From Minisyncoccota bacterium (GTDB lineage: Bacteria; Patescibacteriota; Minisyncoccia; Minisyncoccales; CG1-02-41-26), in assembly GCA_028718785.1 (NCBI GenBank), contig JAQULB010000003.1, positions 8,788 to 72,787 on the forward strand: a DNA stretch of 64,000 nucleotides, written 5' to 3'. Positions 298 to 61,153 of the stretch are shown here, one piece after another (position 1 is the first letter of the stretch; the number at the start of each line of letters is the position of its first letter). Under the pieces are notes generated by a model that did not search any database, had not been told where the DNA came from, and saw only the letters and a program-made list of their open reading frames with translations. A program made the position numbers and the translations under genes.

Positions 298-3200
298 TTG
301 GCTATCCCACGCGATATGAAACCAAAACCTTCCTCAAACTCAAAAATTACTTCTTCATTTCTAACCATCTTTTTGATAACTTTATTAACAGTATGTATTT
401 TTTGGTTTCTTTTGGGACAGGAAAATGTTTTGGCTGCTGGTGCTTATTCTCTTAATTTTGATGGTACGAATGATTATGTTGATATGGGTGCTGGTAGTGC
501 TACTCTGTCTCTTCCCAGTTTTACAATTGAGGCGTGGGTTAAGGCAGATGTTACTTCTTCTACAAGAGGCGTCATTGATAAATTTAGTCTTAGTCAAGCC
601 AAAGGATTTTCTATATACATTCAAAGTGGTAAGCTTTATTTTTTGACTGGTTCTGGGGGTGGATCTTATGATTGGTTAAAGGATAATACGCGGAGCGCTT
701 GTTCAGCAAATACTTGGTATCATGTGGCTGCAGTTTACGATGGCACAACTAAATATCTTTACGTTAATGGTTCTTTAGCAGCCAAAAAGACAGTGGCATA
801 TAGCACAAGCAGCGTTAATCTTGTTGTGGGTGTTGCTTACTCAAGTCCTAAAACTTATTTCTTTGATGGCCTTATCGATGAGGTTCGTATTTGGAATACA
901 GCTCGCACTTCAGACCAAATAAATAGCTATAAAGACACTGAACTTACAGGAAGTGAGTCCGGTTTAGTTGGTTACTGGAATCTTAATGAAGGAACAGGCA
1001 CAACAACAACGGATTTGAGTCCTTCAGGAAACAATGGCACCTTAAGCCCAACTTATCCATCAGATTCTCCAGCATGGTCCGAAAGCTCAATAATGTCAAC
1101 ATCCTACGCCCCACCAGATAATATAACATCCACAGTACTTTCTTCTTCTCAGATAAAATTAGATTGGGATGCTAAATCGGGCGCGATTGGCTATAGAATC
1201 TTTAGAGATGGTTTTTGGCTAAAGGATTTCTATGCTATTTCAGGACTGCTGGAACCTGTATGCGATTCTAACAGTCCCACGTGGTCAACCACAACAGCTC
1301 TTGGCGCATATTCTTTGTATTTTGACGGCACAGATGATTATGTATTAAATCTTGACGATGCTGATTTAGACTTTTCACTAGATCAGGATTTCACAATAGA
1401 GACTTGGATTCAGAATAGCAGCAGTAGTTATAATGGTGGAATTATTAGTAATTTTAATTTAGTCGCTGGTGCCTATAAAGGATATGTTATTAACTATTCA
1501 ACAAATGGTAAGTTTGGTTTCGTCATAGGCGACGGGACCAATTTTACGGAAATCTACAGCAACAGCGCTTACACAGATTATAATTGGCACCATATTGCTG
1601 CTAAATACCAAAACGGTACCATGTATCTTTATATTGATGGCGTTCAACAAAATCAGACTGCTACAGTGGATTTTTCCCCTAACACTGTTTCTAATTTAGT
1701 GATTGGTGGTGAGTATGATAATGCATCCAGCTACCGTTTTAAAGGCTTTATTGACGATGTCCGTATCTGGAATGTTGCTCGTACTTCCGGCGAGATAAAC
1801 ACCTATAAAGATTCTGAACTTACGGGGAATGAGACAGGTTTGGCTAGGTATTTGAGGTTTAACGAAGGAAGCGGATGCTATATTAACTCTACCCCGCCGC
1901 TAACAGGGTTAACTACTTTAACTGAAACTGGCTTATACCCCAATTCTTCATATGAATACCGGATCAGCACGATTTTTAATGATGCTGATTCTGCTCGCAA
2001 GAGCGATGCAATTAACTTAACCACAAATAGCGGCTCTCCAAACCCTGTTGTCTCTTCTTCTAAAAGTGCTTACCAAAAGCTTATGACAGAAGGCGACTCT
2101 ATTACGTATGGAATTGGAGCTGACAGTCTTTCAACCGCTTGGCCTCATAAATTAAAGGATTACTTGGATTCCCGCAATGGCGGCAGTCTTACATCCTCTA
2201 TTACTAATTATGGACTAAGTGGTTCTGTGTCTTCTAATGTACTCGGAAGAATTGCTAATGAGGTGACCACAGCAACCCCGGATCTAGTTACTATCGATAT
2301 TGGATTGAATGATTTACGAAGAGGGGATTTGAGAAGTAAGGGGACAGTAAGCATAGATACTTACAGAAGTAATCTAAGACAAATTATTGATGCGGTAAGC
2401 CCTGGGAACAGCAGAAGTTTGCTTTTGGGCAATATCCCTTTTATGACCAATTGGACATATACTGGTTTTGATTGGGCGGCAGGCAATGAGGCAAAAAGGG
2501 CGGTTTGGAACAAGGTTGTGAGAGATGTGGCAAATGAAAAAGGAGTCATTTTAATTGATGTTTCCACTGCAATGAATGCGAGCACATCCTTACTAGCAGA
2601 TGGCATTCACCCGAATCAAGCAGGACACGATCTTATCGGAACTACTTTTGGCAATAAGCTGATTTTAGGTAGCAGTTTGGGCATCTATTTGAATGCCACA
2701 AATACTGTATATTCAGATGGTTATTATAGCTATTCTTCCTACCCCACCCCTGGGGTTAATCTGGTGAATAATTTGTCAGTTACCCCTTCAACGAGTTCAG
2801 TTGATGTGGTAGTTGATACCTGGAACACCACCAGCACTTATTATAAAAAATGGACTGAATCAGCCACAACCTCAAATATTACCACAAACCATACCATTGG
2901 CGATTTGAGAGCTAATCAGTATTACCAAGTAAAAGTGGGTGGTACAGTTTTGCAAACCCTACAAGCCAATGCTTCAGGAACAATCAGCTTTACATACTCT
3001 GGCGGTTATTCAACAAAAACGTTTGAGGTAGAAGAGCTTCCTACTGCTCCAACCATTGGCACACCAACCGCTTTATCTTCAACTGCCATTCGCTGGAACT
3101 TCACAGACAACGCCGACAATGAAACTGGCTTCCGTGTCTATACCAATGCCGATGCCATAGCCACCAGTTCAGCCACAGCCAATCTAACCTACCTTGATGA

Positions 3201-4077
3201 AACAGGATTATCCGAAAATACTCAATACACAAGATATGTAAAGGCATACAACAGCTATGGTGAAAGCGCTTCCTCTTCAGCAACTTCAACCTACACATCA
3301 GCCAACACTCCCACTGGTTTAACGACTATCAATACTGCTGATCAATCCATTACAGTGTCAGTAGATACTTTCCCTAATGCCACTTCCGCTTCTTCTGGAT
3401 ATTACTTTTCACAAGGTAGCCACAATTCAGGCTGGATACAAACCAATTCTTGGCAAGATACTGGACTTGCTTGCGGAACTAACTATACTTACAGCGTTAA
3501 ATATCGAAACGGAAACGGAGTAGAAACATCCGCTGTTTCCCAAACTTTCAGAACCCCAAACTGCGCTGGGGCTGTGATAATAACTCCTCAAATTAATCAG
3601 CAAACAACTCCTCAAGAAACCATCATCCCAACGGTCAGCTTTGACAAGCCCATTAGTCAAATGAGCCAAGAGGAAATAAAAGCAAAGATTGAGGAAATAA
3701 AAGCAAAGATTACAGAAATCACACAAGACATTACTCAATTGCAATCTCAACAACCAACTCAATCAACACCTAATCCAATTTCAACCATACCAACTACCTT
3801 TTCATTCCAGACTAATTTCAAGCAAGGTAAAGCAGGCTTATCGGTGAAATACTTACAAATTATCCTTAACCAAGACCCAGACACCCAATTAGCCAAAGCA
3901 GGAGTCGGGTCTCCCGGCAAAGAAACAAACTATTTTGGTCCATTAACAGAAAAAGCAGTCATCAAGTTTCAGGAGAAATACAGAGATGCTGTCCTAAAGC
4001 CCTGGGGCTTCACCGAAGGCACAGGTATTGTTGGTAAAACCACCAAAGCTAAACTGAATCAGTTACTTGGCAAATAA
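298..4077 (+). CDS. Large secreted multidomain surface protein: N-terminal TM/signal, two LamG (concanavalin-A-like) domains, SGNH/GDSL hydrolase domain, FN3-like repeats, coiled coil, C-terminal peptidoglycan-binding domain
   Basis: 1259-aa ORF. Hydrophobic N-terminus (FLTIFLITLLTVCIFWFLL). Two LamG-like blocks (FTIEAWVKAD...WYHVAAVYDG...DEVRIWNTARTSDQI, repeated around 1320-1800). GDSL-type block MTEGDSITYG...DGIHPNQAGHDL. C-terminal PG_binding-like LQIILNQDP...GKETNYFGPLTEKAVIKFQEKY. A more likely start is the ATG at 316. Confidence 0.8.
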   Translation: MAIPRDMKPKPSSNSKITSSFLTIFLITLLTVCIFWFLLGQENVLAAGAYSLNFDGTNDYVDMGAGSATLSLPSFTIEAWVKADVTSSTRGVIDKFSLSQAKGFSIYIQSGKLYFLTGSGGGSYDWLKDNTRSACSANTWYHVAAVYDGTTKYLYVNGSLAAKKTVAYSTSSVNLVVGVAYSSPKTYFFDGLIDEVRIWNTARTSDQINSYKDTELTGSESGLVGYWNLNEGTGTTTTDLSPSGNNGTLSPTYPSDSPAWSESSIMSTSYAPPDNITSTVLSSSQIKLDWDAKSGAIGYRIFRDGFWLKDFYAISGLLEPVCDSNSPTWSTTTALGAYSLYFDGTDDYVLNLDDADLDFSLDQDFTIETWIQNSSSSYNGGIISNFNLVAGAYKGYVINYSTNGKFGFVIGDGTNFTEIYSNSAYTDYNWHHIAAKYQNGTMYLYIDGVQQNQTATVDFSPNTVSNLVIGGEYDNASSYRFKGFIDDVRIWNVARTSGEINTYKDSELTGNETGLARYLRFNEGSGCYINSTPPLTGLTTLTETGLYPNSSYEYRISTIFNDADSARKSDAINLTTNSGSPNPVVSSSKSAYQKLMTEGDSITYGIGADSLSTAWPHKLKDYLDSRNGGSLTSSITNYGLSGSVSSNVLGRIANEVTTATPDLVTIDIGLNDLRRGDLRSKGTVSIDTYRSNLRQIIDAVSPGNSRSLLLGNIPFMTNWTYTGFDWAAGNEAKRAVWNKVVRDVANEKGVILIDVSTAMNASTSLLADGIHPNQAGHDLIGTTFGNKLILGSSLGIYLNATNTVYSDGYYSYSSYPTPGVNLVNNLSVTPSTSSVDVVVDTWNTTSTYYKKWTESATTSNITTNHTIGDLRANQYYQVKVGGTVLQTLQANASGTISFTYSGGYSTKTFEVEELPTAPTIGTPTALSSTAIRWNFTDNADNETGFRVYTNADAIATSSATANLTYLDETGLSENTQYTRYVKAYNSYGESASSSATSTYTSANTPTGLTTINTADQSITVSVDTFPNATSASSGYYFSQGSHNSGWIQTNSWQDTGLACGTNYTYSVKYRNGNGVETSAVSQTFRTPNCAGAVIITPQINQQTTPQETIIPTVSFDKPISQMSQEEIKAKIEEIKAKITEITQDITQLQSQQPTQSTPNPISTIPTTFSFQTNFKQGKAGLSVKYLQIILNQDPDTQLAKAGVGSPGKETNYFGPLTEKAVIKFQEKYRDAVLKPWGFTEGTGIVGKTTKAKLNQLLGK

Positions 4078-4175: not shown

Positions 4176-4547
4176 CTATTTACTTTCTTTTTTCTTTCGC
4201 CATTTTCGATACCAAGGCTCTTTTGCGGATTCCAACATTTTTTGCGTTTGCTCCATCTGTCTTGTCATTTGCATAACAATGGTATCGTGACGTTCTGACA
4301 TTTCTTGCACTTGCGTTTGAAGCAAGTTTATTTGCTTATCTTTCTCTTCAAGTTGTACTTTAAGTACGCTAATAACATCAGCAGTTTGTGAAAAATCCTT
4401 TTCACTTCCTAGTGATTCATCATTAACCAACCACCTGCCACCATCACGCTTTGCTTCAAGCTTTCTCTGGCTTATTAAATAGCGAATATTGGCTTGCGTA
4501 CATTTGCGAATTTTTGCGGCTTCTTTTACGCTTATCCAGTTTGGCAT
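4176..4547 (-). CDS. Excisionase-family (HTH_17/MerR-like) DNA-binding protein with a C-terminal coiled coil
   Basis: MPNWISVKEAAKIRKCTQANIRYLISQRKLEAKRDGGRWLV matches the Xis/HTH_17 pattern. Start reassigned to the ATG at 4547, which has a GGGAGG RBS 7 nt upstream; the track ORF extends to 4577. Confidence 0.6.
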   Translation of the reverse strand: MPNWISVKEAAKIRKCTQANIRYLISQRKLEAKRDGGRWLVNDESLGSEKDFSQTADVISVLKVQLEEKDKQINLLQTQVQEMSERHDTIVMQMTRQMEQTQKMLESAKEPWYRKWRKKKESK

Positions 4548-4757
4548 TTGAAAATTCCTCCCGCAAAAGAATAACAAATTTTATTTACTTAAATCAATGG
4601 AAAAATATGGAGATGGGCAATAAAATTGATTTTTGTTTTTACGTAAATCGAAAATAAAGAGTAGAAACCCTGATGTTTTTGCTTTCAATATTTTCTGTTG
4701 ACTATTTCCATATACAACATTTATACTATGTCAGTATGCTAAAGCTTACGATATTTT

Positions 4758-5055: not shown

Positions 5056-6486
5056 GTGAGAAAAGGCAATAGTAAACAGCAAATTCAGATTATTACATCC
5101 AAGGATGAAATGAATCTCGTTGAATTCCCGTTTATTCTTTTGTCTAAAAGAAATGAAAATCAAAAAACCATTGAATTCACTGATTGGACAACGGCTAATG
5201 GTAAAACTGCGAAAAGAGAATGGGTCGTTACCGGATCAGATAAATACGGACTCCCAACTGCTAGTGACGAAGAGCTATATATTGCCTTGATGAAAGTCTC
5301 AAAAGACATGAATTTTCAAAGCAGAAGGGTCTCAATTGTTAGATACCAGCTTGCCAAACTCATGGGTTGGAGATTAGATGGCAAAAGCTACGAAAGGATT
5401 GAGCAAGGGCTGGACAGGTTAAGCGGGGTTAGGATTAAAGCTAAAAATGCTTTTTGGGATAATGAAAAGAAAAAATACGTTACCGTGAATTTCGGTATCA
5501 TTGACGATTATTATTTATATGATGAGAAACCGGGCAAAAAACGTGATATAGCCCAAGAGGAACTTTCCATTAGTAACTTTTCTTGGAACGAAGTGCTATT
5601 CAACAGTTTTAAAGCAGGGAATATCAAAACCATTGACGCTGAGTTCTATTTCACCCTAAAAAGCCCCATTACAAAGAGGCTATACAGATTTCTAGACAAA
5701 AAGAAATACGGTGGAAAGCCTAAATTTGAAATCGGAATCAGAAAACTAGCTTCGTTGCTTCCATTGAAGGATGACTACCCCTCTCATATTAAGGTGTTAT
5801 TGGGGAAAGCCCATGACGAATTAATGGAAAACGGTTTTATAAGCAGCGTGGATTACGAAAAAGCCAAAGGCGGAGAAGAGAAGATTGTTTATAGATTTCA
5901 CGGAAAGTTATCTGCTAAAGGCAAAACTGAAGAACCAGAAAAAGAGTTATTTCCACGAGGCAAAGGAAATGACCCTGTACTTCAATGTTTAGAGGAAAGG
6001 GGAATTACAAAAAGAGTAGCTAATACTCTAATTCGTAACTGTTCAATCGATCAAATACAAACTCAAATAGGAGTGTTTGACTGGTTAAAGAGAAATAAAA
6101 GCCCATTGGTGAGTAAGAATCCTGCTGGTTTTTTGCGTAAGGCGATTGAAGAAAACTATCAACCTCCCAAAGAATATCTCGATCAGCAAAATAAAAAAGA
6201 CGAAGAACAAAGAAAGGAAGATCGTCAAGAACGTTGGCTCAAACATAGAAAGGAATTAATAAAGCAAGATATTATTGATTGGCACCATGTCCCATTAGAA
6301 AAAAGAATAGAAGGGCGACTTGGGTTCTGGATAACTGGAGAGACACTGAATAGTAGAATACCAACGCCAGAACAGATAGAGCTTAAAAAACAAGAATTGA
6401 TAGATTCTTTGCCGAAAACCGATGACGAAAAATGGGAATACTTAGCACAAAATTATTCGGAGAACCCCCCAAATGATTTTGAATAG
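5056..6486 (+). CDS. Putative plasmid-type replication initiator (RepA_N-like)
   Basis: 476-aa ORF directly downstream of the iteron array and an AT-rich region, GTG start with an AAAGGAAAA RBS-like stretch. The N-terminal region (MNLVEFPFILLSKRNENQKTIEF...GLPTASDEELYIALMKV) resembles firmicute RepA_N initiators. Assignment rests mainly on context. Confidence 0.5.
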   Translation: MRKGNSKQQIQIITSKDEMNLVEFPFILLSKRNENQKTIEFTDWTTANGKTAKREWVVTGSDKYGLPTASDEELYIALMKVSKDMNFQSRRVSIVRYQLAKLMGWRLDGKSYERIEQGLDRLSGVRIKAKNAFWDNEKKKYVTVNFGIIDDYYLYDEKPGKKRDIAQEELSISNFSWNEVLFNSFKAGNIKTIDAEFYFTLKSPITKRLYRFLDKKKYGGKPKFEIGIRKLASLLPLKDDYPSHIKVLLGKAHDELMENGFISSVDYEKAKGGEEKIVYRFHGKLSAKGKTEEPEKELFPRGKGNDPVLQCLEERGITKRVANTLIRNCSIDQIQTQIGVFDWLKRNKSPLVSKNPAGFLRKAIEENYQPPKEYLDQQNKKDEEQRKEDRQERWLKHRKELIKQDIIDWHHVPLEKRIEGRLGFWITGETLNSRIPTPEQIELKKQELIDSLPKTDDEKWEYLAQNYSENPPNDFE

Positions 6487-6614
6487 AAGCAAACAAAAGA
6501 CTAAATTTATGGGTTAGTGAGATACATTATGGTTATACATAGTCATATACATATATGTTTGTATAGGCAAAAATAATCACTTTTGGTTATATAACTCAAA
6601 TAATACAAGGGAAA

Positions 6615-6866
6615 AGGCAGGTTATTGAACGTCGGTTGGTGTCTAATTCACCTCCCGACCCAATCCCTTTTTCGCACCACATCTCACTCATAACTGAGTT
6701 TCGTTGCTGGATGCGACTCCGCCCTTCTGAGGGGCTTCGGGTTCGCTTAAAGCATCACCAAAAGGGATTGGGTCGGGAGCTCGATTTCTCAAACCAATCA
6801 GGCTTCGTCTTTGCTAAGACTCGCCTTCTTGGGAGAAATCGGCACCCCGACGTTCAACAACCTGCC
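6615..6866 (+). other. GC-rich structured element with nested long-range inverted repeats: candidate ncRNA, or replication/transfer origin
   Basis: Outer inverted repeat AGGCAGGTTATTGAACGTCGG (6615-6635) pairs with CCGACGTTCAACAACCTGCCT (6846-6866). Inner inverted repeat ACCTCCCGACCCAATCCCTTTT (6648-6670) pairs with AAAAGGGATTGGGTCGGGAGCT (6759-6780). CGATTTCTC and GAGAAATCG form a third pair. Several C(UUCG)G-type loops (gcttcggg, gcttcgtc). The 91-aa track ORF here is probably spurious. Confidence 0.4.
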
Positions 6867-6920
6867 TTGGGTACAAAAATACATAATAATTTATGGATTC
6901 AAAACATTTAGGGTTAAGCA

Positions 6921-7808
6921 GTGGGAAAAGCACCTCGTTTTGAAAAAAAACCAAAAGTGATTGGAAATATCGTAATCCAGAAAAGAGATGTAGAGATCAT
7001 AAAACTCTTATGGGAATACCGGTTTCTGAGTTCAGAGCAGATTCAAAAGCTAGCTGAAGGTTCAGATCAGGTCAAGTTGAGACGACTCCAAAAGCTTTAT
7101 CACCATGGATACATTGACAGACCGATCAGCCAGATCATATTCTCAAATCCATTGTTCGGTCCGCAGAAGATGGTTTACGGATTAGGAGATAAAGGAGCCG
7201 ATCTTCTGGCTGAAACTTATGGTATAGACAGAGGCAAGATAGTCTGGAGCGAAAAGAACAAAGAAGTTCGAGAACAATACATCCAGCATACCTTAATGGT
7301 ATCCGATTTCAGAGCGTGTTTGACCCTATCTTTGAAAGATAATCCTGAAACGGAGCTTCACTGGTTAATGGGCGGTGATTTAGAGATAAAGCAGGAAGTT
7401 CGTTTCAGAGAAGAAGGTAAAGAAAAAAGGATACCCATCATTCCTGATGGGTATTTTGATATAGAGGATCCTCGCGGCAAAGCATATTTTTTCCTTGAAG
7501 CTGATCGTTCAACCATGACCAATACCCGGTATTTTAATAAAATGCGTGCCTATTGGCTGTGGTGGCAAAGAGGCGGACAGAAAGATCTGGGTATAGAAAA
7601 TTTCCGGGTTTTAACTATAACCAAGACCAAAGAAAGGCTGGAAAATCTCATTGAGGTGACAAAGCGTGTCAATAACAGCCAAGCAAGCTCTTATATGTTT
7701 TGGTTTGCCGATATTTCGGCTTTTAGTATTAAAAGGCCTTCATCAATCCTTGATAATATCTGGGCGACTGACAACAGGAATGGAGGCTTACATTCTTTGC
7801 AGGAGTGA
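6921..7808 (+). CDS. Replication-relaxation family-like protein (N-terminal wHTH)
   Basis: GTG start. N-terminal VIQKRDVEIIKLLWEYRFLSSEQIQKLAE looks like a winged HTH, and the overall architecture resembles the replication-relaxation family of plasmids and ICEs. Confidence 0.45.
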   Translation: MGKAPRFEKKPKVIGNIVIQKRDVEIIKLLWEYRFLSSEQIQKLAEGSDQVKLRRLQKLYHHGYIDRPISQIIFSNPLFGPQKMVYGLGDKGADLLAETYGIDRGKIVWSEKNKEVREQYIQHTLMVSDFRACLTLSLKDNPETELHWLMGGDLEIKQEVRFREEGKEKRIPIIPDGYFDIEDPRGKAYFFLEADRSTMTNTRYFNKMRAYWLWWQRGGQKDLGIENFRVLTITKTKERLENLIEVTKRVNNSQASSYMFWFADISAFSIKRPSSILDNIWATDNRNGGLHSLQE

Positions 7809-8920: not shown

Positions 8921-10636
8921 ATGGATATTTTGCTTGGTGAAAATGCTCTAAACGGTAAAGACGTATTCCTGAAGCAAAAAGGCAAACAGGTCCATACACA
9001 TATTATCGGGTCCTCAGGAGCGGGTAAAAGCAAATTCCTCGAGCATTTAATGCGTGAGGATATAAAAGCAGGCAGGGGCTTTTGTTTGGTGGACCCACAT
9101 GGTGATCTATATCAAAATATATTGAAGTATATAGTCAGACGGCGTATGGAAAAGAAAGTGATATTAATCGATCCCAATGATGAGGAATGGTCTGTCGGGC
9201 TTAATTATCTCGAATACAACAAAGATATTATGAGTTCTGCCTCACACGCCTCTTCGGTGATGGCAGGGATAGCAAAGGTATTCGGTGGAGAGGATACGGA
9301 CATAGCTCCCCGGTTGCAAAGATGGGAAAGAAATACACTCGTGCCTTTAATAGAAAGAGAGTTGACTCTTATTGAGATGACAGGCTTTGTTAATCCGCAA
9401 AGCCCTGAATTGAGAGCAGTAGTATTAAGGGAAGTCCAAAACGAAGCGATACTGCAAGAATGGGACATTTTTGATAAAGCCACTGCCAGAGACAGGACGA
9501 CCTATATTGAGGCAGTCTTAAATAGAGCTAATAAGTTTGCAGCAAGCCCGGTGATAAGGCGTATATTCGGGCAAGCAAAGTCGACTATTGATTTCAGGCA
9601 AGCTATGGATGAAGGCAAGATTATCCTCTGTAATTTAGCTTGCACTAAAATGTCAGACGAAGAGCAAAGGCTTCTGGGGATCGTAATTTTAGACAAGCTG
9701 GTGCAGGCGGGAAAATCAAGAACCAATATCCCTGAAGCAAAGAGAAAACCTTACTACGCCTATCTCGATGAGTTCGGCTTGTTCGTCTCAAAAGATATTG
9801 CTAAAGCCTTACAGGAGTTAAGAAAATTCAGAGTTTTCTTTATTCTTGCCCATCAGGAGCTAGAACAGCTAAAAGAAGATGATAAGAAGGTTTACAGCGC
9901 TGTCATGTCAGAACCACAGATCCGGGTTTCATTCAGGATAAGTCGGGAAGATGCCGAGATCATGGCAAAGGAAATGTTCACTGGCAAGATAAAACCTTAT
10001 GAGAAAAGACGCATAGAACAAACTAAGTTCAGGCCCGTTGAAACTACGAGAACCATTACGAGTAGCTCATATAGCTCTTCCGAAAGTGAAAGCTATGGCC
10101 AAAGCGATAGCTCAGGAGAAAGCGAAACTCGAGTGCCGCCAGACCTTAGTTTCTTTGATATCCCGCTTGGCGATGACAATGACATAATTTATATGGGAGC
10201 TTCATCGTCATCTGCTGTTTCTTCGAGCAGATCAAGCTCAAGTGGAAGCTCTTATGGCGAATCGGTAGTTCCTTTTTACGAGTTTCACGAGTTTAAAGAG
10301 GTTTCCAGCATTCAGGATTTCTCAATAGAAGAATTAATAGAAAAATTTATATCGTGGATAAAGACCCAGCCTGACAGGCATGCGCAGTTGAAGATAAAGC
10401 AAAATTCGCCAATCCCCATAATAACTCCATGGGTGGACGATTTGCCTGTGAGAGAAAAGGATATTAAAAAGCTTAAAGAAGCTATTTACTCAGTGTATGC
10501 TTTGCCTGCTCATGAAGCAGACCAGATGATAGACCAGAGGAAAACACTGATTTTAGATGAAGCAGAATCTATGGGTATGATTTCCTCGACAAAGGAGCAA
10601 CCCGTGCTTACTCCCGAAAGTATGCGGCATAAATAG
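8921..10636 (+). CDS. TraD/VirD4/DUF87-like P-loop ATPase (type IV coupling-protein-like), with a Ser/Glu-rich low-complexity C-terminal region
   Basis: Walker A HTHIIGSSGAGKSKFL followed by LVDPHGDLY, and a hhhhDE Walker B (AYLDEFGLF). ATG at 8921 with a CAGGAGGAG RBS. No N-terminal TM. Confidence 0.55.
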   Translation: MDILLGENALNGKDVFLKQKGKQVHTHIIGSSGAGKSKFLEHLMREDIKAGRGFCLVDPHGDLYQNILKYIVRRRMEKKVILIDPNDEEWSVGLNYLEYNKDIMSSASHASSVMAGIAKVFGGEDTDIAPRLQRWERNTLVPLIERELTLIEMTGFVNPQSPELRAVVLREVQNEAILQEWDIFDKATARDRTTYIEAVLNRANKFAASPVIRRIFGQAKSTIDFRQAMDEGKIILCNLACTKMSDEEQRLLGIVILDKLVQAGKSRTNIPEAKRKPYYAYLDEFGLFVSKDIAKALQELRKFRVFFILAHQELEQLKEDDKKVYSAVMSEPQIRVSFRISREDAEIMAKEMFTGKIKPYEKRRIEQTKFRPVETTRTITSSSYSSSESESYGQSDSSGESETRVPPDLSFFDIPLGDDNDIIYMGASSSSAVSSSRSSSSGSSYGESVVPFYEFHEFKEVSSIQDFSIEELIEKFISWIKTQPDRHAQLKIKQNSPIPIITPWVDDLPVREKDIKKLKEAIYSVYALPAHEADQMIDQRKTLILDEAESMGMISSTKEQPVLTPESMRHK

Positions 10637-12641: not shown

Positions 12642-13766
12642 ATGAATAAAATAAAATGTTATCAATGTGGCAAACTTTATCCAGAGGACAAGCTAACGTT
12701 CTTTGATACAGGGATGTGGTGCGGGGAATGCCTTGATGAATACACAACGCTCTGTGATGATTGTGGCGAGAGGATTTACACCGATGACGCTCATTATACT
12801 ACTGATGATTACCCTGTATGCGACAGGTGCTATGACGAACATTATTTTTACTGCGACAGGTGTGAGAGGATTTACAGCAACGAATACTGGACTAATGGCG
12901 TGTGCGAGCGGTGCAGTGAGGATGAGGGAGCGCCAGAGGCGATACCAAACGACAGACGCTACTACTTCAAAAGCCGAAAGGACTTGCCAATAGGTGTAGA
13001 AATAGAGGCGGAGGGCGGGGATTATATGGATGTCTACGATGAGCTAACGCCAAAAGGGTTCGGGGTTTCAAAAGACGGGAGCTTACAGGACGGCATAGAG
13101 GTTCAGGTCCCTGCTTCCAATGGTGGCAATACCGAAAAGCTGATAAAACAGGCATGTGAAAGCTTAAAGAGAAATGGCTTTGGGATTTCAAGCCGATGCG
13201 GTTTGCATGTCCACATAGAGTTTCCGAGCCGAAAGAAAACGATCAAGCGATTATTGCTGATGGTCTATGCCTGTGAGCCGATACTTTTCGCAGTTAATCC
13301 CAAAAGCAGAAAGAATAACAATTTTTGTAAATCGCTTGCCCCTGCCTTCAAGGTCGGTGAAATTCTGTCCACCGAGACAGCCAGAATAGACAAGCTCTTT
13401 TACTCCAAAGGCAATGGACGAACCACGCAAAACGCCATTAAGCTCTACAAGATGAGCAAGTGGAACGAATGCCGATACTTTGGCTTTAACCTGCATTCGC
13501 TTTTTTTCAGGAATACGATCGAGTTTAGATACCACGCTGGAACGATCGAGCCACAAAAGATAATCTCCTGGGTATGGCTTTTAAGGTCAATTCTGCTGTA
13601 TGTGCGCTATGGCTATGACAAGCCCGAAGTCCTTGGGCTTATCGAACAGCCAACGATCCTTGGCAAGTTCAGGTATTTGAGCAATATGCTCAAACTCAAC
13701 GAAGGGCATATTTCTTACTTCCTTAATCGGTATATGAGATTTAATAAAAAACTATGTGTGGCATAA
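12642..13766 (+). CDS. Multi-zinc-ribbon N-terminal region fused to a putative amidoligase (GCS2/glutamine-synthetase-like, Amidoligase_2-like) domain
   Basis: At least six CxxC pairs in the first 95 aa. The C-terminal region carries GVEIEAEGG, CGLHVHIEF and TIEFRYHAGT, typical of carboxylate-amine ligases of the GCS2/amidoligase class. Confidence 0.5.
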   Translation: MNKIKCYQCGKLYPEDKLTFFDTGMWCGECLDEYTTLCDDCGERIYTDDAHYTTDDYPVCDRCYDEHYFYCDRCERIYSNEYWTNGVCERCSEDEGAPEAIPNDRRYYFKSRKDLPIGVEIEAEGGDYMDVYDELTPKGFGVSKDGSLQDGIEVQVPASNGGNTEKLIKQACESLKRNGFGISSRCGLHVHIEFPSRKKTIKRLLLMVYACEPILFAVNPKSRKNNNFCKSLAPAFKVGEILSTETARIDKLFYSKGNGRTTQNAIKLYKMSKWNECRYFGFNLHSLFFRNTIEFRYHAGTIEPQKIISWVWLLRSILLYVRYGYDKPEVLGLIEQPTILGKFRYLSNMLKLNEGHISYFLNRYMRFNKKLCVA

Positions 13767-14632
13767 TATACGCAAAAAATCTGGCTGGAAACGAGCCAGT
13801 CAATAACTTGATCAAGGTGCTTTACCAGAACCAGAAAGGCAGGGGGCAACAGGGCTTTGGCTTCGTGGGTATGAGCGCAAAGAGTGTATGCACTTATCGG
13901 GCCATTAACGAGAAATGGATAATGAGATACCTAAACGAAAACCAGTATGACGAGATACTTTTTCATCACCGAAACCCTACCTCAACACCGAACACGCTGA
14001 AAAGCACGCACCCGTTCGTAATACGATTAAACGGCAAGAGCTACTATTTCGTCCACAATGGGATAATTCAGAATGACGAGGAGTTGCAGAAGGATCACTA
14101 CCAGAGGAATATCACCTACCAGAGCCACGAGGAATTTCTTTTTAACGATAGCGAGGCGTTAGCGTGGGATTTCTGTCTGTGGCTCAATGGTGAGCAGGAT
14201 AAGATGAGAGCGAGGGGCGCTGTCGCCTTCGTATGCCTTGAAACCGATGAGAATAACAGGGCTGTTAAGCTGTATTTCTACCGAAACAACGAGGCGCCTT
14301 TAAGGATATACAGGGATAAAACCTTGCTTGTAATATCGTCAGAGGGGAGCTACCCGCTTGTAAGGGAAAACTGCCTGTATTGCTGGGATTATCCGAGCGG
14401 GGAGGTCTTGAAAATGAATGATCTCCAAATCGCTTGCCCGAATGTTTATGATGTCAGTATGGGCGATGATGTGCGTAATTACGAGATTATGTTGCGTGAT
14501 GAGTTGAGGGCATTAGAGCAGGAGAAAGATTACCTCATAAGTGTGGGAAATTATGAAGAAGCGGATTATATTGATGACGAGATAATGGATTTAGCGGATC
14601 AACTAAAAGGTCGAACTTTGACACAATTTTAG
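13754..14632 (+). CDS. Class II (Ntn) glutamine amidotransferase-like protein
   Basis: Begins MCGIIYAK (Cys2 nucleophile, as in GlmS, PurF and AsnB). Overlaps the stop of the amidoligase gene, which suggests translational coupling. Confidence 0.6.
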   Translation: MCGIIYAKNLAGNEPVNNLIKVLYQNQKGRGQQGFGFVGMSAKSVCTYRAINEKWIMRYLNENQYDEILFHHRNPTSTPNTLKSTHPFVIRLNGKSYYFVHNGIIQNDEELQKDHYQRNITYQSHEEFLFNDSEALAWDFCLWLNGEQDKMRARGAVAFVCLETDENNRAVKLYFYRNNEAPLRIYRDKTLLVISSEGSYPLVRENCLYCWDYPSGEVLKMNDLQIACPNVYDVSMGDDVRNYEIMLRDELRALEQEKDYLISVGNYEEADYIDDEIMDLADQLKGRTLTQF

Positions 14633-17060: not shown

Positions 17061-17744
17061 CTACACTTCCGCTATCCTGGCGCTTTGCTCTATCCGCCTG
17101 AATGTCTCTTCCCGTCTGCTGTTGGTTATCTGTGCGTAGATCATGGTGTTCTGGATATTGGTGTGACCGAGGTGGTCCTTGACGAACTCTATGCCCTCCC
17201 CGGCATCCAGCAGATGAGTGGCTATGGAGTGCCTGAGACAGTGGACGGAGTATTTGGGGGCGATCCCTGCTTTCTGTGCGTATCGCTTGAAAAGCTGATG
17301 CGCTCTCTGCCTGCTGATATTGCCCTGTCTGCCTGTGAATAGGGCATCACCGGTGTCCAGTCTCTTTTTGAGATACTTCCTGATGAGCTTTTCGGCGGTC
17401 AAAAAAAGCGGTCGTTCTCCACCGATCCCGCCTTTCAGCCTATGGATGAGTATCCTTTTGTTTTCAAGGTCGACGTGGGAGAGTTTGAGCGAAAGAGCTT
17501 CTGATATTCTGAGTCCGTAAAGATAGGTGAGTCCGAATAACGCCTTGTCTCTGTTGCTTTTAATGCACAAAAAAAGCCTCTCGACTTCTTCTTTTGAGAG
17601 GTATTTTATGGCTGACGGAGTGCAGTTGTATATTTTAATCAAAATGTCTAACTCACAACATAGCAAATTTATCCTCCTTTCCCTTGTGTAAAGCCATTTC
17701 ACAGCATTTCTCATCCGCATAACTTTGACAACAAAATACGTCAT
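17061..17744 (-). CDS. Tyrosine recombinase / phage-integrase-family protein (catalytic domain only)
   Basis: GLRISEALSLKLSHVDL...HCLRHSIATHLLDAGEGIEFVKDHLGHTNIQNTMIYAQI supplies the R, HxxR and Y catalytic residues. Only about 227 aa, with no obvious N-terminal core-binding domain. Confidence 0.75.
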   Translation of the reverse strand: MTYFVVKVMRMRNAVKWLYTRERRINLLCCELDILIKIYNCTPSAIKYLSKEEVERLFLCIKSNRDKALFGLTYLYGLRISEALSLKLSHVDLENKRILIHRLKGGIGGERPLFLTAEKLIRKYLKKRLDTGDALFTGRQGNISRQRAHQLFKRYAQKAGIAPKYSVHCLRHSIATHLLDAGEGIEFVKDHLGHTNIQNTMIYAQITNSRREETFRRIEQSARIAEV

Positions 17745-21536: not shown

Positions 21537-22901
21537 CTAAAAAGGTAGAGAATCAAATAGTGTATTTGTTTTCTTCGTCTCCGTTGTTTTAGGAAATTTC
21601 TGATCATAAGCCCTATATGGAGAATAAGATTTTAGAAGAAGCTCGTTTTCCACTTCCTTCCGTGGTCTTGAATATTTTTCTCTGCATAGCTTTGTGATCT
21701 CTTTTTCATAAGATTTAACCTTTTCAGGCGGTGGCAAAGTTATTGCGTTGAAAGGCTGAGATGTGGCTCCATCAACCATAAGCTTCAGGTAAATATGATG
21801 ATTGGGCAGATTGATTAAGTCGTTCATGTTAAATACAGGATAAAATTCCTTACCCAGTAGTTCTGCATCTTCGATGCTTACTCTGAAAGAGATAACTGTT
21901 CCAATATTGCCAAATATTGCTCCCCTTATTTTTTCGTCAAGCTGGTTAGTGTATTGGTGAGCAAGGGTCATGTGTAGACCGTATTTTCTGGCTTCAGACA
22001 GAACATCAGCAAATGATAAAGTCAGAAAGTTTTGGACTTCATCAACGTATAAATAAAATGATCGCCTCTTTCCTTCTGGTAAATTAGCTCTACTCAAAGC
22101 TGAAAGCCATATCTTGGTTACTATCATTGAACCAAGAAGCGAGCAATTATCCTCACCAATCTTACCTTTAGCTAGGTTGACTATCAGGATTTTGCCTTCG
22201 TCCATGACTTTTCTTAGATCAAAGGTGTTTTCCTTTTGCCCAACGATATTTCTGAGTGGAAAACTCGTTAGGAACTGTCCCATCTTATTTAGGATAGGGG
22301 ATACAGCTTCTGTTTTGAGATAAGCTGAGTATTTCTCGAACTCAGAGAACCAGAACTCTCTTACTTGCTGGTTCTTCACCTTCCCTATAATCTCCCATCG
22401 AAACTCTTTATCAGTCAACAGTTTTGGTATATCCAAGATTGTGCTATTTGGTCGTTCCAGAAGCGTTAAGATAGAGTTTCTTAAGATATGTTCCAGTCTT
22501 GGACCCCAAAACTCAGACCATATCTTTTTGAATACAGAGATTAATCCCGACGCTATGAGGTGATGTTGGTCAGGATGAGGGCTTTCCAAAGGGTTAAAAG
22601 CGATGGGATACTCAACATCTCCGGGGTTGAAATAAATGACATCTTTTATCCTTTTCTTTGGCACGAAATCCAAAACAGCTTCAGTCAGATCGCCATGGGG
22701 GTCAATCAGTGCTAATCCACTACCATCGTTCACGTCAGAAATGACCATGTTTTCAATAAGCGTTGATTTTCCAGTTCCAGTTTTCCCTACGATATAAATA
22801 TGTCCTCTGCGATTCTTTTCCCTGATCCCAAACCTCTTTCTTATATCACGATAGTTGGTGACAGCAAAGAATGTGATTGGATTTTTGTCGTTTCCATTCA
22901 T
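21537..22901 (-). CDS. TraD/VirD4/DUF87-like P-loop ATPase (second copy, divergent from 8921-10636)
   Basis: Walker A HIYIVGKTGTGKSTLI followed by LIDPHGDL, and a Walker B YLYVDEVQNF. Confidence 0.55.
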   Translation of the reverse strand: MNGNDKNPITFFAVTNYRDIRKRFGIREKNRRGHIYIVGKTGTGKSTLIENMVISDVNDGSGLALIDPHGDLTEAVLDFVPKKRIKDVIYFNPGDVEYPIAFNPLESPHPDQHHLIASGLISVFKKIWSEFWGPRLEHILRNSILTLLERPNSTILDIPKLLTDKEFRWEIIGKVKNQQVREFWFSEFEKYSAYLKTEAVSPILNKMGQFLTSFPLRNIVGQKENTFDLRKVMDEGKILIVNLAKGKIGEDNCSLLGSMIVTKIWLSALSRANLPEGKRRSFYLYVDEVQNFLTLSFADVLSEARKYGLHMTLAHQYTNQLDEKIRGAIFGNIGTVISFRVSIEDAELLGKEFYPVFNMNDLINLPNHHIYLKLMVDGATSQPFNAITLPPPEKVKSYEKEITKLCREKYSRPRKEVENELLLKSYSPYRAYDQKFPKTTETKKTNTLFDSLPF

Positions 22902-23074: not shown

Positions 23075-24631
23075 ATGGGAATTATTATGTCAAAAGAAAA
23101 CAATAAAACTGAAGGCTTCGAGAGAACACTTTTTAAGGCGGCGGATAAACTCCGAAAAAATATGGATGCCGCCGAATATAAGCATATCGTGCTTGGGCTT
23201 ATCTTTCTTAAATACATCTCAGATTCGTTTGAGGACTTATACAAAAAATTAAAAACCGGTGAAGGCGACTATCAAGGCGCTGATCCAGAAGACCCCGATG
23301 AATACAAAGCGGAAAATATCTTTTTCGTTCCACACATAGCCCGCTGGTCTTATCTTCATTCCCACGCAAAACTCCCATCAATCGGCAATGACGTTGATAA
23401 TGCGATGGAAGCCATAGAAAAAGAGAACCCATCGCTCAAGGGAATCTTACCGAGAGTATATGCACGACCTAATCTTGATAAAGCCGCTCTTGGTGGACTT
23501 ATTGACTTAGTCGGGAATATTGCGATTGGTGATGAGGCAGCTAAAAGCAAAGACGTTCTCGGTAGGGTATATGAATACTTTCTCGGTGAATTTGCCAATG
23601 CTGAGGGCAAAAAGGGCGGACAATTCTATACGCCAAAGTCAATCGTTCGCATTATGGTAGAGATGATAGAGCCTTACAGTGGTCGTGTATATGATCCATG
23701 CTGTGGCTCTGGCGGCATGTTTATTATGAGTGAGCGATTCGTTGAAAGCCATCAGGGAAAAATTAACGATATTTCTATTTATGGGCAGGAGAGCAACCAG
23801 ACTACTTATCGTCTGTGCCGAATGAATCTTGCTATCCGTGGGATTGATGGATCACAAGTGAAATGGAATACGGAAGGCTCTTTCCTTAATGATACTCATA
23901 AGGACTTAAAAGCAGATTTTATTTTGGCTAATCCGCCGTTTAACGATAGCGATTGGTCGGGAGAACTTCTGCAAAAAGACCCTAGATGGCAATATGGCAT
24001 ACCTCCGGCGGGAAGTGCCAATTTTGCTTGGCTTCAGCACATGATCTATCATCTGTCGCCAAAAGGCGTGATGGCTTGCGTGTTAGCTAACGGTTCGCTT
24101 TCATCTCAGACTAATAACGAAGGGGAGATACGCAGACAGTTTGTTGATAACGATCTAGTGGATTGTATCGTCATGCTCCCAAAACAGCTTTTCTATAATA
24201 CTGGTATACCTGCTTGTATCTGGTTTATCTCCCGCAAGCGCGCAGGCAATGGCGACAGAAAGCGCACTGGTGAAATTCTGTTTATTAATGCCGATGAAGT
24301 TGGTTCTATGGAAGACCGAACCCATAAATTGTTTAATGATGAAGATATACAGAAAGTCGCTGGTACTTATCACGAGTGGAGAACTAAAAATGGGAAGTAT
24401 GAGGATATAAAGGGATTTTGTAAGTCCGTTAAGCTTGAAGAAATACAGAAGCATAATTACATTCTTACTCCGGGGCGATATGTCGGTATAATGGACGAAG
24501 AAGACGATGGCATACCCTTTGAGGAGAAAATAACGGAATTAACCGGGAAACTTAAAGTGCAAGTAACGGAAGAAAAGAGACTAAACGAGAAAATAAAAGA
24601 GAGTCTGGAAAGTATAGGATTTGAGCTTTGA
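23075..24631 (+). CDS. hsdM: Type I restriction-modification system methyltransferase subunit
   Basis: NPPF motif (ILANPPFNDSDW). SAM-binding FYTPKSIVRIMVEMIEP...YDPCCGSGGMF. Size 518 aa. Confidence 0.85.
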   Translation: MGIIMSKENNKTEGFERTLFKAADKLRKNMDAAEYKHIVLGLIFLKYISDSFEDLYKKLKTGEGDYQGADPEDPDEYKAENIFFVPHIARWSYLHSHAKLPSIGNDVDNAMEAIEKENPSLKGILPRVYARPNLDKAALGGLIDLVGNIAIGDEAAKSKDVLGRVYEYFLGEFANAEGKKGGQFYTPKSIVRIMVEMIEPYSGRVYDPCCGSGGMFIMSERFVESHQGKINDISIYGQESNQTTYRLCRMNLAIRGIDGSQVKWNTEGSFLNDTHKDLKADFILANPPFNDSDWSGELLQKDPRWQYGIPPAGSANFAWLQHMIYHLSPKGVMACVLANGSLSSQTNNEGEIRRQFVDNDLVDCIVMLPKQLFYNTGIPACIWFISRKRAGNGDRKRTGEILFINADEVGSMEDRTHKLFNDEDIQKVAGTYHEWRTKNGKYEDIKGFCKSVKLEEIQKHNYILTPGRYVGIMDEEDDGIPFEEKITELTGKLKVQVTEEKRLNEKIKESLESIGFEL

Positions 24632-25303: not shown

Positions 25304-26563
25304 ATGACATCTAAAAATACACAGCAGATACTGACTGGATGGGAAGAAGCCACTTTGGGGGATTATATTTCTATTAAGCATGGCTTTGCATTTAAGGGAG
25401 AATATTTCTCCGAACAGGAAAATGAAAATGTATTATTAACGCCGGGAAATTTTAATATTGGAGGAGGATTTAAAGCTGATAAATTGAAGTATTATATAGG
25501 CTTGTTTCCAGAAGAATACATTTTGCATGCCGGCGATTTAATAGTTACAATGACTGATCTAAGTAAAGATGGTGATACTCTAGGTTATCCTGCAAAAGTC
25601 CCGCATTATGAAAATAAAAACTTTTTACATAATCAACGAATAGGGCTTGTTCAATTCAAACGCAAGGATCTTGATAGAGACTTTTTATACTATCTGATGT
25701 GTACAAGAAATTACCAAAAAAATATTGTAAATTCTGCATCAGGAAGCACTGTACGGCATACGTCACCCGATAGGATTAAAGAATATAAGTCTTTATTTCC
25801 ATCTTTTCCCGAACAACGAGCTATTGCGTCCGTGCTTTCTGCTTTTGATGATAAGATTGAACTTTTACGGGAGCAGAATAAGACGTTGGAAAGTATCGCC
25901 CAAGCACTATTCAAGCGATGGTTTGTGGATTTTGAGTTCCCTAATGAGCAAGGCAAGCCCTATAAATCAAGCGGTGGCAAAATGATTGACTCTGAATTGG
26001 GAGAAATCCCAGATGGGTGGAAAGTAGGGGGATTGAGGGATATTATAAATATTTATGATTCTAGGCGTATACCATTATCAAGCGAGCAGAGAGCAAAAAG
26101 AAAAGGAAAATATCCATACTATGGGGCTACTGAGGTTATAGATTATATTGATGATTATTTATTTGAAGGCATTTATCTTTTACTTGCCGAAGATGGCTCT
26201 GTTATAGATGAAGAAGGATTTCCTGTTCTGCAATATGTTTTTGGACAGTTTTGGGTCAGTAACCATGCTCATGTTATACAAGGTAAGCAAGACATATCAA
26301 CTGAATATCTTTATCTTCTTTTTAAGCAAACCCCGGTTTCTGGGATTATTACAGGCGCGGTACAATTAAAAATAAACCAAGAAAATCTATTATCACTAGA
26401 AGTTATCATACCAGAAAAGCAAACCTTAAAAGTATTCAATAGTCTTATGGATTCTATTTTCTCTAAGGTTAGAGCTAATATTCTTCAAATTCAGACTCTT
26501 TTTCAACTCCGAGATACTTTATTACCAAAGCTTATGCGTGGTGAAGTGAGAGTGAAGCATTAA
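25304..26563 (+). CDS. hsdS: Type I restriction-modification system specificity subunit (two target-recognition domains)
   Basis: Position between hsdM and hsdR. Repeated conserved spacer-like segments (…LFKRWFVDFEFPNEQG… and …LPKLMRGEV…). Size 419 aa. Confidence 0.75.
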   Translation: MTSKNTQQILTGWEEATLGDYISIKHGFAFKGEYFSEQENENVLLTPGNFNIGGGFKADKLKYYIGLFPEEYILHAGDLIVTMTDLSKDGDTLGYPAKVPHYENKNFLHNQRIGLVQFKRKDLDRDFLYYLMCTRNYQKNIVNSASGSTVRHTSPDRIKEYKSLFPSFPEQRAIASVLSAFDDKIELLREQNKTLESIAQALFKRWFVDFEFPNEQGKPYKSSGGKMIDSELGEIPDGWKVGGLRDIINIYDSRRIPLSSEQRAKRKGKYPYYGATEVIDYIDDYLFEGIYLLLAEDGSVIDEEGFPVLQYVFGQFWVSNHAHVIQGKQDISTEYLYLLFKQTPVSGIITGAVQLKINQENLLSLEVIIPEKQTLKVFNSLMDSIFSKVRANILQIQTLFQLRDTLLPKLMRGEVRVKH

Positions 26564-30400: not shown

Positions 30401-30545
30401 TATAAAAGAAAGCATTCAAGCGAAGCTTCGGGTCATTGTCCGCCGAACACTACGCCAATACGGTTATCCACCGGATCAACAGTTATTAGCTACTGAGAAT
30501 GTGTTGAAACAGGCAGAACTTTTCGCGGATGATTGGAGTGATTAG
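27426..30545 (+). CDS. hsdR: Type I restriction enzyme R subunit (helicase-nuclease)
   Basis: 1039 aa. SF2 motifs HTQGSGKS (Walker A) and [12 protein letters not shown] (DEAH). N-terminal nuclease region. Confidence 0.85.
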
Positions 30546-45599: not shown

Positions 45600-45600
45600 A

Positions 45601-45790: not shown

Positions 45791-45964
45791 TAAGAAAATC
45801 GCCCCGTTCTTAATCAGAACCGAGCTTATCTATACTTTATCAAATAAAATAATCTTTGTCAAATTTGTATGGACTGGGTTCAAAAAAAGCGTATCAATCT
45901 GTGCCGACTCGCCTTGCTGGAGCCTTCGGCGTAGCGCAGGTTGGCCAACTTTGACACACTTTAT

Positions 45965-46558: not shown

Positions 46559-46564
46559 TGATTA

Positions 46565-46771: not shown

Positions 46772-46772
46772 G

Positions 46773-61150: not shown

Positions 61151-61153
61151 AAT

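Follow-up and report, generated by a model that had tools for sequence, protein, structure and literature searches.

We analyzed a 64,000-nt stretch of the Minisyncoccota bacterium contig JAQULB010000003.1 (the whole stretch is referred to here as the window), in which a gene for a replication initiator of the RPA family (rep) is followed on the same strand by genes for a Replic_Relax protein, a relaxase of the MOBC class, and a type IV coupling protein (T4CP). The rep and relaxase genes are separated by an intergenic region of 435 nt (6487-6920), which contains a GC-rich element built of nested inverted repeats. The element is present once in the window, and its GC content (0.49-0.50 over 6600-6899) exceeds that of its flanks (0.30-0.38), as the original prediction for this DNA had pointed out. 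With moderate confidence, we read the segment 6521-6868 as the origin of transfer (oriT) of a MOBC mobilization module, consisting of short protein sites and a branched inverted-repeat domain. Coordinates of all features are collected in Table 1.

In the element, an outer helix (P1) encloses a small hairpin of variable length (P1a), a long helix (P2) with three hairpins in its interior (P2a, P2b, and P2c), and a further domain (P3). The original prediction had proposed an outer and an inner inverted repeat at this place, and both are real, with corrected limits: the second outer arm had been set 1 to 2 nt off, and the perfect core of the inner repeat is the 20 bp of P2, from which an imperfect extension reaches 27 nt (6645-6671/6760-6786; 89% complementary). 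The further short helices that it had supposed are seen in P3 and in the predicted hairpins inside P2. The inner six pairs of P1 (CGTCGG/CCGACG) are nearly invariant across homologues, and the outer P1 pairs covary. P1a takes the form of GGCA/TGCC, GAAGC/GCTTC, or longer versions in homologue alignments; the MAFFT alignment is poor there, and no pair counts are given for this hairpin. Two conserved unpaired blocks lie inside P2, of which the TTCGGGTTC block has several positions that are nearly invariant across the whole family, and these blocks are candidate recognition or nick sites. Both strands fold far better than shuffled sequences, with z scores of -10.5 (top strand) and -12.0 (bottom strand) under RNA parameters and of -11.1 and -12.7, respectively, under DNA parameters; none of 200 shuffles was as good under either set.

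Table 1. Features of the element, its flanks, and the surrounding island (positions are those of the window)
Feature	Position	Strand	Remarks
Whole branched inverted-repeat element (P1, P1a, P2 with P2a-c, P3)	6614-6868	-	~255 nt; strand given is the better-folding one
P1, 5' arm	6614-6635		22 nt, 95% complementary to partner 6847-6868
P1, 3' arm	6847-6868		
P1a, small hairpin of variable length	6638-6651		GGTG...CACC in the window; 3-20 bp in homologues
P2, 5' arm	6652-6671		Perfect 20 bp with 6760-6779
P2, 3' arm	6760-6779		
P2a	6672-6678/6710-6716		Inside P2 (6672-6759); tip hairpin 6686-6690/6695-6699
P2b hairpin	6721-6725/6731-6735		Inside P2
Unpaired block TTCGGGTTC	6736-6744		Inside P2; GGGTT invariant in clade A
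P2c hairpin	6745-6746/6752-6753		Inside P2
ATCACC	6754-6759		3' end of P2 interior; largely conserved, several positions kept
P3 domain	6782-6841		Base helix 6782-6790/6833-6841
P3, middle helices	6794-6797/6829-6832; 6800-6803/6823-6826		
P3, tandem mismatch	6798-6799/6827-6828		TC/TC on top strand, GA/GA on bottom strand
P3, tip	6807-6811/6816-6820		
7-bp site array	6521-6565		GATACAT 6521-6527, TATACAT 6534-6540, TATACAT 6546-6552, inverted TTGTATA 6559-6565
14-bp perfect bracket repeat AATCACTTTTGGTT	6575-6588 (left arm)		Partner 6949-6962, inside relaxase coding region
91-aa TTG open reading frame, called mechanically	6636-6911	+	Overlaps element; not a gene
Replication initiator RPA, PF10134	5056-6486	+	Pfam E = 2.3e-21; upstream neighbor, outside the module
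Replic_Relax protein PF13814, MOBC-class relaxase	6921-7808	+	Pfam E = 2.4e-22, 80.4 bits vs cutoff 25.3
Type IV coupling protein (T4CP)	8921-10636	+	Pfam TrwB_AAD_bind, T4SS-DNA_transf; NCBIfam VirD4/TraD-like
Excisionase-like helix-turn-helix protein	4176-4577	-	Island
Amidoligase_2	12642-13766		Island
GATase	13754-14632		Island
Tyrosine recombinase	17061-17744	-	Island
Second T4CP	21537-22901	-	Island
Type I restriction-modification system	hsdM 23075-24631, hsdS 25304-26563, hsdR 27426-30545		Island
DUF3732 protein	37741-39783		Island

Homologues of the element were sought by iterated nhmmer in 130 loci fetched from metagenomes and genomes around relatives of the relaxase, of which 185 homologues were present in the protein collection. 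The element was found in ~50 loci, invariably on the strand of the relaxase gene, and it usually ends 30 to 100 nt before the first gene of a relaxase or T4CP-relaxase operon. This first gene is the relaxase gene in the window and in most other loci. In L034 and L084, a small open reading frame (ORF) precedes the relaxase gene; in L033, the element is followed by an ORF for a membrane protein, the T4CP gene, and the relaxase gene, in that order; and in L041, judging from gene order, it is followed by the T4CP gene and then the relaxase gene. The T4CP gene is syntenic with the relaxase gene in many loci. Similarity between elements tracks identity between relaxases (Spearman 0.84, n = 37), and the two diverge together down to 43% protein identity.

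The initiator gene upstream of the element is not constant. Its product is an RPA initiator in the window, L034, and L071, a HTH_36/Rep_O-like protein in L005 and L087, and a weakly TrfA-like protein in L014. In L034 and L084, rep and the element stand ~1 kb apart, with other ORFs between them, and the distance to the relaxase operon is still short. Over the first ~1 kb of rep, six loci (L008 to L011, L044, and L083) are only 40 to 55% identical; identity is 93 to 100% from approximately -500 nt relative to the element onward, a span that covers the final ~400 nt of rep, the element itself, and the relaxase gene. This pattern points to a recombination break within rep that swapped the initiator's N-terminal portion. 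The varied initiators, the break inside rep, and the ~1-kb separation show that the element belongs to the relaxase module and not to any one Rep.

Several observations concern the wider distribution of the family. Relatives of the relaxase have been binned into very diverse metagenome-assembled genomes, a pattern suggestive of mobile DNA that is difficult to bin. A blastn search with the element against 72,556 PLSDB plasmids gave no match, and tblastn with the relaxase returned only five distant matches in plasmids. A pattern scan of the viral_contigs collection with GTCGGGAGCNCGATTT produced 28 matches, none accompanied by an element or a relaxase, and these were put down to chance. In L047, whose relaxase is 50% identical to that of the window, the hidden Markov model (HMM) detected no element, and a different nested inverted-repeat block of ~250 nt (1900-2160) lies between the RPA and relaxase genes instead. 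The 401-nt stretch around this block (1860-2260) has a DNA fold z score of -7.05, and a 22-nt direct repeat, GGACATCCTATCGGACATCCCC, flanks the block. The block may correspond to the element in diverged or replaced form.

The nested inverted repeats and the further helices are conserved across homologues by compensatory change. RNAalifold, applied to a sequence-only MAFFT alignment of 27 distinct copies of the element, assigned 33 core pairs to P1, P2, and the P3 base. Both sides have changed in 24 of these 33; the arms do not diverge freely without compensatory change, the outcome that the original prediction had said would count against it. In an independent count, 96.4% of the core cells were paired, compared with 77.2% when partners were shuffled and 46 to 56% when partners were slid by one to three columns. 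Doubly changed cells numbered 181, compared with 49 in shuffles, and the covariation score was 0.563, compared with at most 0.151; none of 500 shuffles reached the observed values. The signal is spread over the helices, with changes on both sides in six of seven pairs of P1 (helix 2), in 10 of 15 pairs of P2 (helix 4; 96.3% paired), and in all six pairs of the P3 base (helix 6). For the 14 closer sequences of clade A, an 80-pair model adds P1a, P2a, P2b, P2c, and the distal part of P3. Within P3, the TC/TC columns are invariant in all 14 clade A copies, and the pairs beside them covary (CCAA/TTGG becoming CCGT/ACGG). Among 31 loci scanned for folds with a sliding window, the element was the most structured window in most of those that carry it. 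Compensatory change is common to folded DNA and structured RNA and therefore has no power to discriminate between them.

A 91-aa ORF that overlaps the element was correctly listed by the original prediction as a call of the ORF track. A Pfam scan of its product gave no match, and no open frame, in any reading frame, is kept across the 27 homologues. Substitutions in these homologues relative to the frame of the window ORF are spread evenly over codon positions (e.g., 17/19/13 and 26/24/26), and insertions and deletions among close relatives of the element are not multiples of 3. Judged on these sequence comparisons, the element is noncoding and the 91-aa ORF is not a gene, in line with the original suspicion.

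Among 891 core cells, 844 hold a Watson-Crick pair, 13 (~1.5%) a G-U pair, and 8 (~0.9%) an A-C pair. Isolated mismatches within Watson-Crick helices were also counted without an alignment, over 2,289 pairs in 24 nonredundant copies. Read on the bottom strand, the 34 isolated mismatches comprise 23 G.A, 5 G.T, 4 A.C, 1 A.A, and 1 G.G; of the wobble type there are 5 on the bottom strand and 4 on the top. In RNA helices, G-U normally reaches several percent, well above G.A, and the least destabilizing mismatches in DNA are G.A, G.T, and G.G. The mismatch pattern is un-RNA-like and points to the bottom strand, because the G.A positions read C.T on the top strand. The minimum free energy (MFE) is also lower for the bottom strand in all 27 homologues, under RNA and DNA parameters alike, with mean gaps of 8.9 and 5.4 kcal/mol, respectively. 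Most of this gap persists when G-U pairs are forbidden, and it therefore arises from the loops. The unpaired bases inside P1 are A-rich and C-poor on the bottom strand (A 0.42, G 0.26, U 0.21, C 0.12) and rich in pyrimidines on the top strand (U 0.38, C 0.30, A 0.24, G 0.09).

The loops themselves do not resemble those that the original prediction had described. It had reported several C(UUCG)G motifs and UUCG-type loops. The word TTCG occurs five times in the element (6671, 6700, 6736, 6742, and 6804), only once flanked by C and G (6735-6740), and in neither the predicted nor the comparative structure does it close a tetraloop. The bottom-strand reading of these words is CGAA, which is often found in c(GAA)g triloops or G.A loops. 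Of ~135 hairpins across the homologues, the top strand has 2 with UNCG and 3 with GNRA loops (5 such among 49 tetraloops), and the bottom strand has 2 of each (4 among 56). Bottom-strand loops include c(GAA)g triloops, GATA, GTTA, and TTT, types that are notably stable in DNA hairpins.

An Rfam scan, which the original prediction had proposed, left the element unmatched, whether the whole window was scanned with Rfam 15 at gathering scores or the 701 nt of 6400-7100 at E <= 10. The matches that it did return were tRNAs in the window and a subthreshold Bacilli-1 match at 6535-6584, outside the element. A scan of both strands for sigma-70-type consensus sequences, which leaves other sigma types uncovered, detected no promoter-like site. 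The sole terminator-like site is weak and lies outside the element, on the minus strand at 6474-6455; 1 such site was found where 0.6 is expected in shuffles. This weak hairpin (6455-6474) sits in the 3' end of rep, just past the element for a leftward transcript. Overall, these results favor an element that acts as folded DNA, on its bottom strand, more than as RNA, with the limits that the sequences are related, that the counts are modest, and that A-rich loops and G.A motifs are common in RNAs too.

Upstream of the structured domain, the window carries direct copies of a 7-bp word at a spacing of 12 to 13 bp, followed by an inverted copy. In most loci, two direct 7-mers stand exactly 12 nt apart, ~10 to 70 nt upstream of the structured domain (with the domain bounded as in the alignment), with the inverted copy 13 to 15 nt beyond the direct pair. 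Under a strict rule that called for two direct 7-mers 10 to 14 nt apart plus an inverted copy, such sites were found in 13 of 23 loci, with a constant spacing of 12 nt and a chance rate of 2 to 30% per locus. The word is clade specific, being TATACA(T) in some loci and TAGTCAT (twice) with ATGACTA in others, and the same word is found behind different Rep families. They look like places where a protein of the relaxase module would bind. By likeness to TraX of pAD1, which binds direct repeats, they are candidate sites for the putative winged helix-turn-helix of the relaxase.

The region holds other repeats as well. The 14-bp bracket repeat encloses the element and the relaxase start codon, and none of 200 shuffles reached 14 nt; it is not conserved, an analogous bracket (19 bp) being present only in L051, and it is not counted in the family structure. 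A word of ~14 nt, CCAATC[AC]CTTTTGGT, occurs four times in alternating orientation (6575-6588, 6949-6962, 6660-6673, and 6757-6771), which would allow the P2 arms other long-range partners. An additional small hairpin (P0) is present in many homologues, downstream of the 7-bp sites and 20 to 60 nt upstream of P1 (L033, L034, L084, L052, L087, L062, L051, L065, and L071; examples are CCTTGCTAACACAAGG and GGCGTAACTACGCC), and the window is apparently without the 5' arm of P0.

The relaxase belongs to a family with a distinctive fold. PF13814 has been equated with MOBC and with CONJscan MobC (PMC5357655) and assigned to the PD-(D/E)XK fold (PMC3424549). The MOBC members TraX of pAD1 and MobC of CloDF13 are PD-(D/E)XK nucleases with an N-terminal helix-turn-helix (PMC5357655, PMC3424549, PMC12857230), and a DEE motif has been described for this class (PMC6736028). 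In the window relaxase, P175-D176, E193, and D195 are invariant in 28 homologues. D176, E193, and D195 align with the D/E/E of the relaxase of pAM373, a homologue that MOB-suite typed as MOBC, in a distant hhalign match (E = 0.0017 over 190 columns, with a probability of only 15.7%). Residues 19 to 83 have a weak profile match to MecI-type winged helices (E = 0.05).

The nearest likeness in layout is to oriT2 of the Enterococcus faecalis plasmids pAD1 and pAM373 (TraX/Orf8). The relaxases share the Pfam family Replic_Relax, the site is intergenic and adjoins the T4CP and relaxase genes, and a large nested inverted repeat comes after short repeats at roughly helical spacing, which the fewer and partly inverted sites of the window may parallel. 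The pAM373 region flanked by the T4CP and MOBC relaxase genes has five ~11-nt direct repeats and then nested inverted repeats of 18 and 25 bp with a small tip hairpin (fold z = -11.5 and -14.4). Francia and Clewell (2002, Mol Microbiol 45:375) reportedly located the nick within the large inverted repeat and ascribed specificity to the direct repeats. TraX of pAD1 binds five direct repeats 70 to 120 bp from nic, and no covalent intermediate was seen (PMC12857230). More generally, oriTs typically occupy large intergenic regions upstream of the relaxase operon, and those of MOBC systems are often upstream of T4CP-MOBC (bioRxiv 10.1101/2024.01.30.577996). The window element likewise lies in a large intergenic region and has the large nested inverted repeat of a MOBC-type oriT. 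The differences from pAM373 are nevertheless considerable. The two relaxases are only remotely related, as the hhalign values above show; the window element is 255 bp, versus ~140 bp, and its branched fold comprises eight helices or more, together with conserved unpaired blocks and a tandem G.A, whereas that of pAM373 is one long nested hairpin. The window has two to three direct copies and one inverted copy of a 7-bp site, in contrast to five or six direct repeats, and its element is 50 nt from the relaxase start, not ~600 nt.

Three other kinds of element invite comparison. Single-strand origins (sso) of rolling-circle plasmids and ICEs, such as ssoT of pBAA1/pTA1060 and sso1 of ICEBs1, are also noncoding, relaxase-adjacent segments of ~200 to 300 nt with several stem-loops; they are orientation specific and predicted to act as single strands, and the window element has a fixed orientation and a favored strand. 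The sso1 of ICEBs1 is ~200 bp with three stem-loops, acts in one orientation, and adjoins the relaxase gene nicK (PMC4595007). It lies downstream of nicK, whereas the window element is upstream of the relaxase gene, codiverges with one relaxase family, and has covarying protein sites; there is no sequence similarity or shared motif between sso and the window element. The conAn2 RNA of pLS20 is encoded at the head of a conjugation operon and has 20-bp inverted repeats around a 238-bp center with a GC-rich patch (PMC8191782). The window element is likewise a long noncoding segment at an operon head, with ~20-bp inverted repeats around a long center and a GC-rich patch. However, conAn2 is a sense-strand RNA that acts with the protein ConAn1, encoded just upstream, and no ConAn1-like gene stands between the window's rep and the element, whose sense strand folds less well and has pyrimidine-rich loops and whose helices have almost no G-U pairs. 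The plasmid and conjugation RNAs of Rfam (e.g., traJ-II and the FinP/traJ 5' untranslated region) share a neighborhood of conjugation genes with the element, but no Rfam 15 family matches it at either threshold given above. The original prediction had left the choice between a structured RNA and a DNA origin. Its conserved structure stands and its UUCG cue for RNA does not; an oriT fits better than an RNA because of the linkage to the relaxase, the Watson-Crick helices, the rarity of RNA-type tetraloops, the lack of an Rfam match, and the pAM373/pAD1 layout.

If the element is an oriT, transfer might proceed as follows. The relaxase, with its putative winged helix and its PD-(D/E)XK nuclease, would dock on the 7-bp sites, and the 255-bp domain would come out of the duplex, either by unwinding or by extrusion as a cruciform. 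The bottom strand of the domain would fold into a branched structure of P1, P1a, P2 with its three inner hairpins, and P3, and the relaxase would nick one strand within or beside this domain. The coupling protein would pass the strand to a type IV secretion system (T4SS), and in the recipient the refolded domain could aid termination and recircularization, and perhaps help to prime the complementary strand. Relaxase genes of F, RP4, and R388 are the last to enter the recipient. The bottom strand would be the transferred one if relaxase genes enter last here as well, a rule that may fail for monoderm-type elements. We consider it somewhat probable that the element is an oriT of MOBC plan that belongs to a new sequence family and is unusually branched and complex.

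It is important to point out that a number of observations weigh against an oriT. We could name no nick site in the element, and ~80 loci with more distant relaxases have no copy recognizable by the HMM. We know of no oriT as elaborate as one with approximately eight helices and conserved unpaired blocks. A 5' leader RNA or an operator could equally well lie 30 to 100 nt upstream of an operon's first gene, and transcription of the top strand is probable in any case, as no terminator follows rep. The argument from G-U pairs is a statistical one, made on phylogenetically related sequences. Ten of the 23 loci lack the sites under the strict rule, the relaxase is placed on the 7-bp sites by analogy only, and the choice of the bottom strand as the transferred strand would follow solely from the rule known for F, RP4, and R388. 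The element HMM found no similarity to pAM373 or CloDF13 (E <= 10), nor did blastn to PLSDB plasmids; with no similarity to a known oriT, the element would, if an oriT, have to represent a new sequence family. The pAM373 record has no oriT annotation, and the repeat region of that plasmid, located here by gene order, is presumably its oriT; the CloDF13 record holds no useful mob or oriT annotation. Finally, no genes for a T4SS channel were seen beside the module, which is therefore at most mobilizable.

Other explanations have to be weighed with these points in mind. One that we entertain only tentatively goes further than an oriT of familiar kind: the element would be natural single-stranded DNA with a multijunction fold of the size of a riboswitch, and MOBC relaxases would act as structure-specific nucleases on branched DNA, in contrast to a relaxase that reads the sequence of a simple hairpin. 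Such a DNA would have ~60 to 80 base pairs, an invariant tandem G.A, and conserved junction nucleotides, and the relaxases that act on it have a fold like that of restriction endonucleases and Holliday resolvases. The folded DNA might in addition serve to prime synthesis of the complementary strand in the recipient. Less likely still would be a large noncoding RNA of a new class, dedicated to conjugation modules. RNA of any kind we regard as rather doubtful, whether a top-strand 5' leader (e.g., a processive antiterminator like conAn2 or a translational regulator) or a bottom-strand antisense RNA that controls the leader. A large, GC-rich, covarying multihelix structure surrounded by AT-rich DNA, placed a short and constant distance upstream of an operon's first gene, is what one might expect of such an RNA; conAn2 is a precedent at the head of a conjugation operon, and the A-rich, C-poor bottom-strand loops with G.A motifs are found in many RNAs. 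What speaks for DNA is that G-U is no commoner than A-C in the core cells, that isolated G.U mismatches (5 on the bottom strand, 4 on the top) are far outnumbered by the 23 G.A, and that GNRA and UNCG loops are rare. The top strand, which is the operon-sense strand, has pyrimidine-rich loops, C.U mismatches, and the worse fold in 27 of 27 homologues, and the scans found no conserved promoter (of sigma-70 type) or terminator and no Rfam match; a ConAn1-like gene is likewise absent from the interval between rep and the element.

The remaining candidates are DNA sites of another kind or no site at all. We think it unlikely that the element is an sso or a single-strand initiation site, at which the folded transferred or displaced strand would recruit RNA polymerase or primase and which would adjoin the nick region. 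The strand-asymmetric, DNA-like fold, better on the bottom strand in every homologue and with its purine-purine mismatches there, would agree with such a role, and so would the size (~250 nt) and the several stem-loops, which recall sso1 of ICEBs1. However, known sso types are shared among unrelated plasmids, whereas the element codiverges tightly with one relaxase family and has no match among PLSDB plasmids, and the covarying 7-bp sites and the position upstream of the relaxase gene fit a relaxosome site better. By eye, the loop sequences hold no conserved match to what we take to be the CS-6 word of ssoA (TAGCGT-like); the P3 tip of the window reads TAGCAA, which is not conserved. An origin of vegetative replication served by the upstream rep, with the 7-bp sites as iterons, is very unlikely. 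The element does lie immediately downstream of rep in the window and in many loci, and short repeated sites and AT-rich DNA adjoin it, but the same element and sites stand behind initiators of different families, the element stays 93 to 100% identical where the first ~1 kb of rep is only 40 to 55% identical, and in L034 and L084 it keeps close to the relaxase operon with other ORFs between it and rep. Least credible of all, to the point of being nearly negligible, is a protein-coding gene or a miniature transposable element with the outer arms as terminal inverted repeats. The 91-aa ORF that spans the element and the 22-bp inverted repeat that bounds it might prompt these ideas; yet there is no conserved frame, no third-position bias, and no restriction of indels to multiples of 3, and the element is single copy in the window, syntenic and codiverging with the relaxase to 43% identity, and its internal helices covary too.

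The rep-relaxase-T4CP module is carried by a chromosomal mobile and defense island that spans ~4100-43400 of the window and whose other genes are listed in Table 1. No att-like direct repeats of at least 12 nt were found at the island ends that were tried. Directly to the left of the island, an ORF of 1,259 aa (298-4077) with repeated low-complexity stretches looks like a large secreted or surface protein. To its right, 44349-62410 contains housekeeping genes (those for NusA, CCA-adding enzyme, PNPase, and trigger factor), and five tRNA genes (Ala, Val, Pro, Arg, and Lys) lie at 46.5 to 52.8 kb. Because of these housekeeping and tRNA genes, we take the window to be chromosomal.

MOBC is the least understood class of relaxases. 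Its members have a restriction-enzyme fold and a binding site far from the nick, and no covalent DNA intermediate has been seen (PMC12857230, PMC6736028); it is also the relaxase class most commonly reported in Patescibacteria (PMC12102498). A candidate cognate MOBC site that comes with a comparative structure model resting on dozens of compensatory changes, a favored strand, and conserved unpaired blocks provides concrete substrates for nicking, binding, and mobilization assays. The case also indicates that a GC-rich, covarying element that looks like RNA can be recognized as probable folded DNA by its scarcity of wobble pairs, the type of its mismatches, and the composition of its loops. Taken together, the oriT, the relaxase, and the T4CP would make a possible vector part for uncultured lineages.

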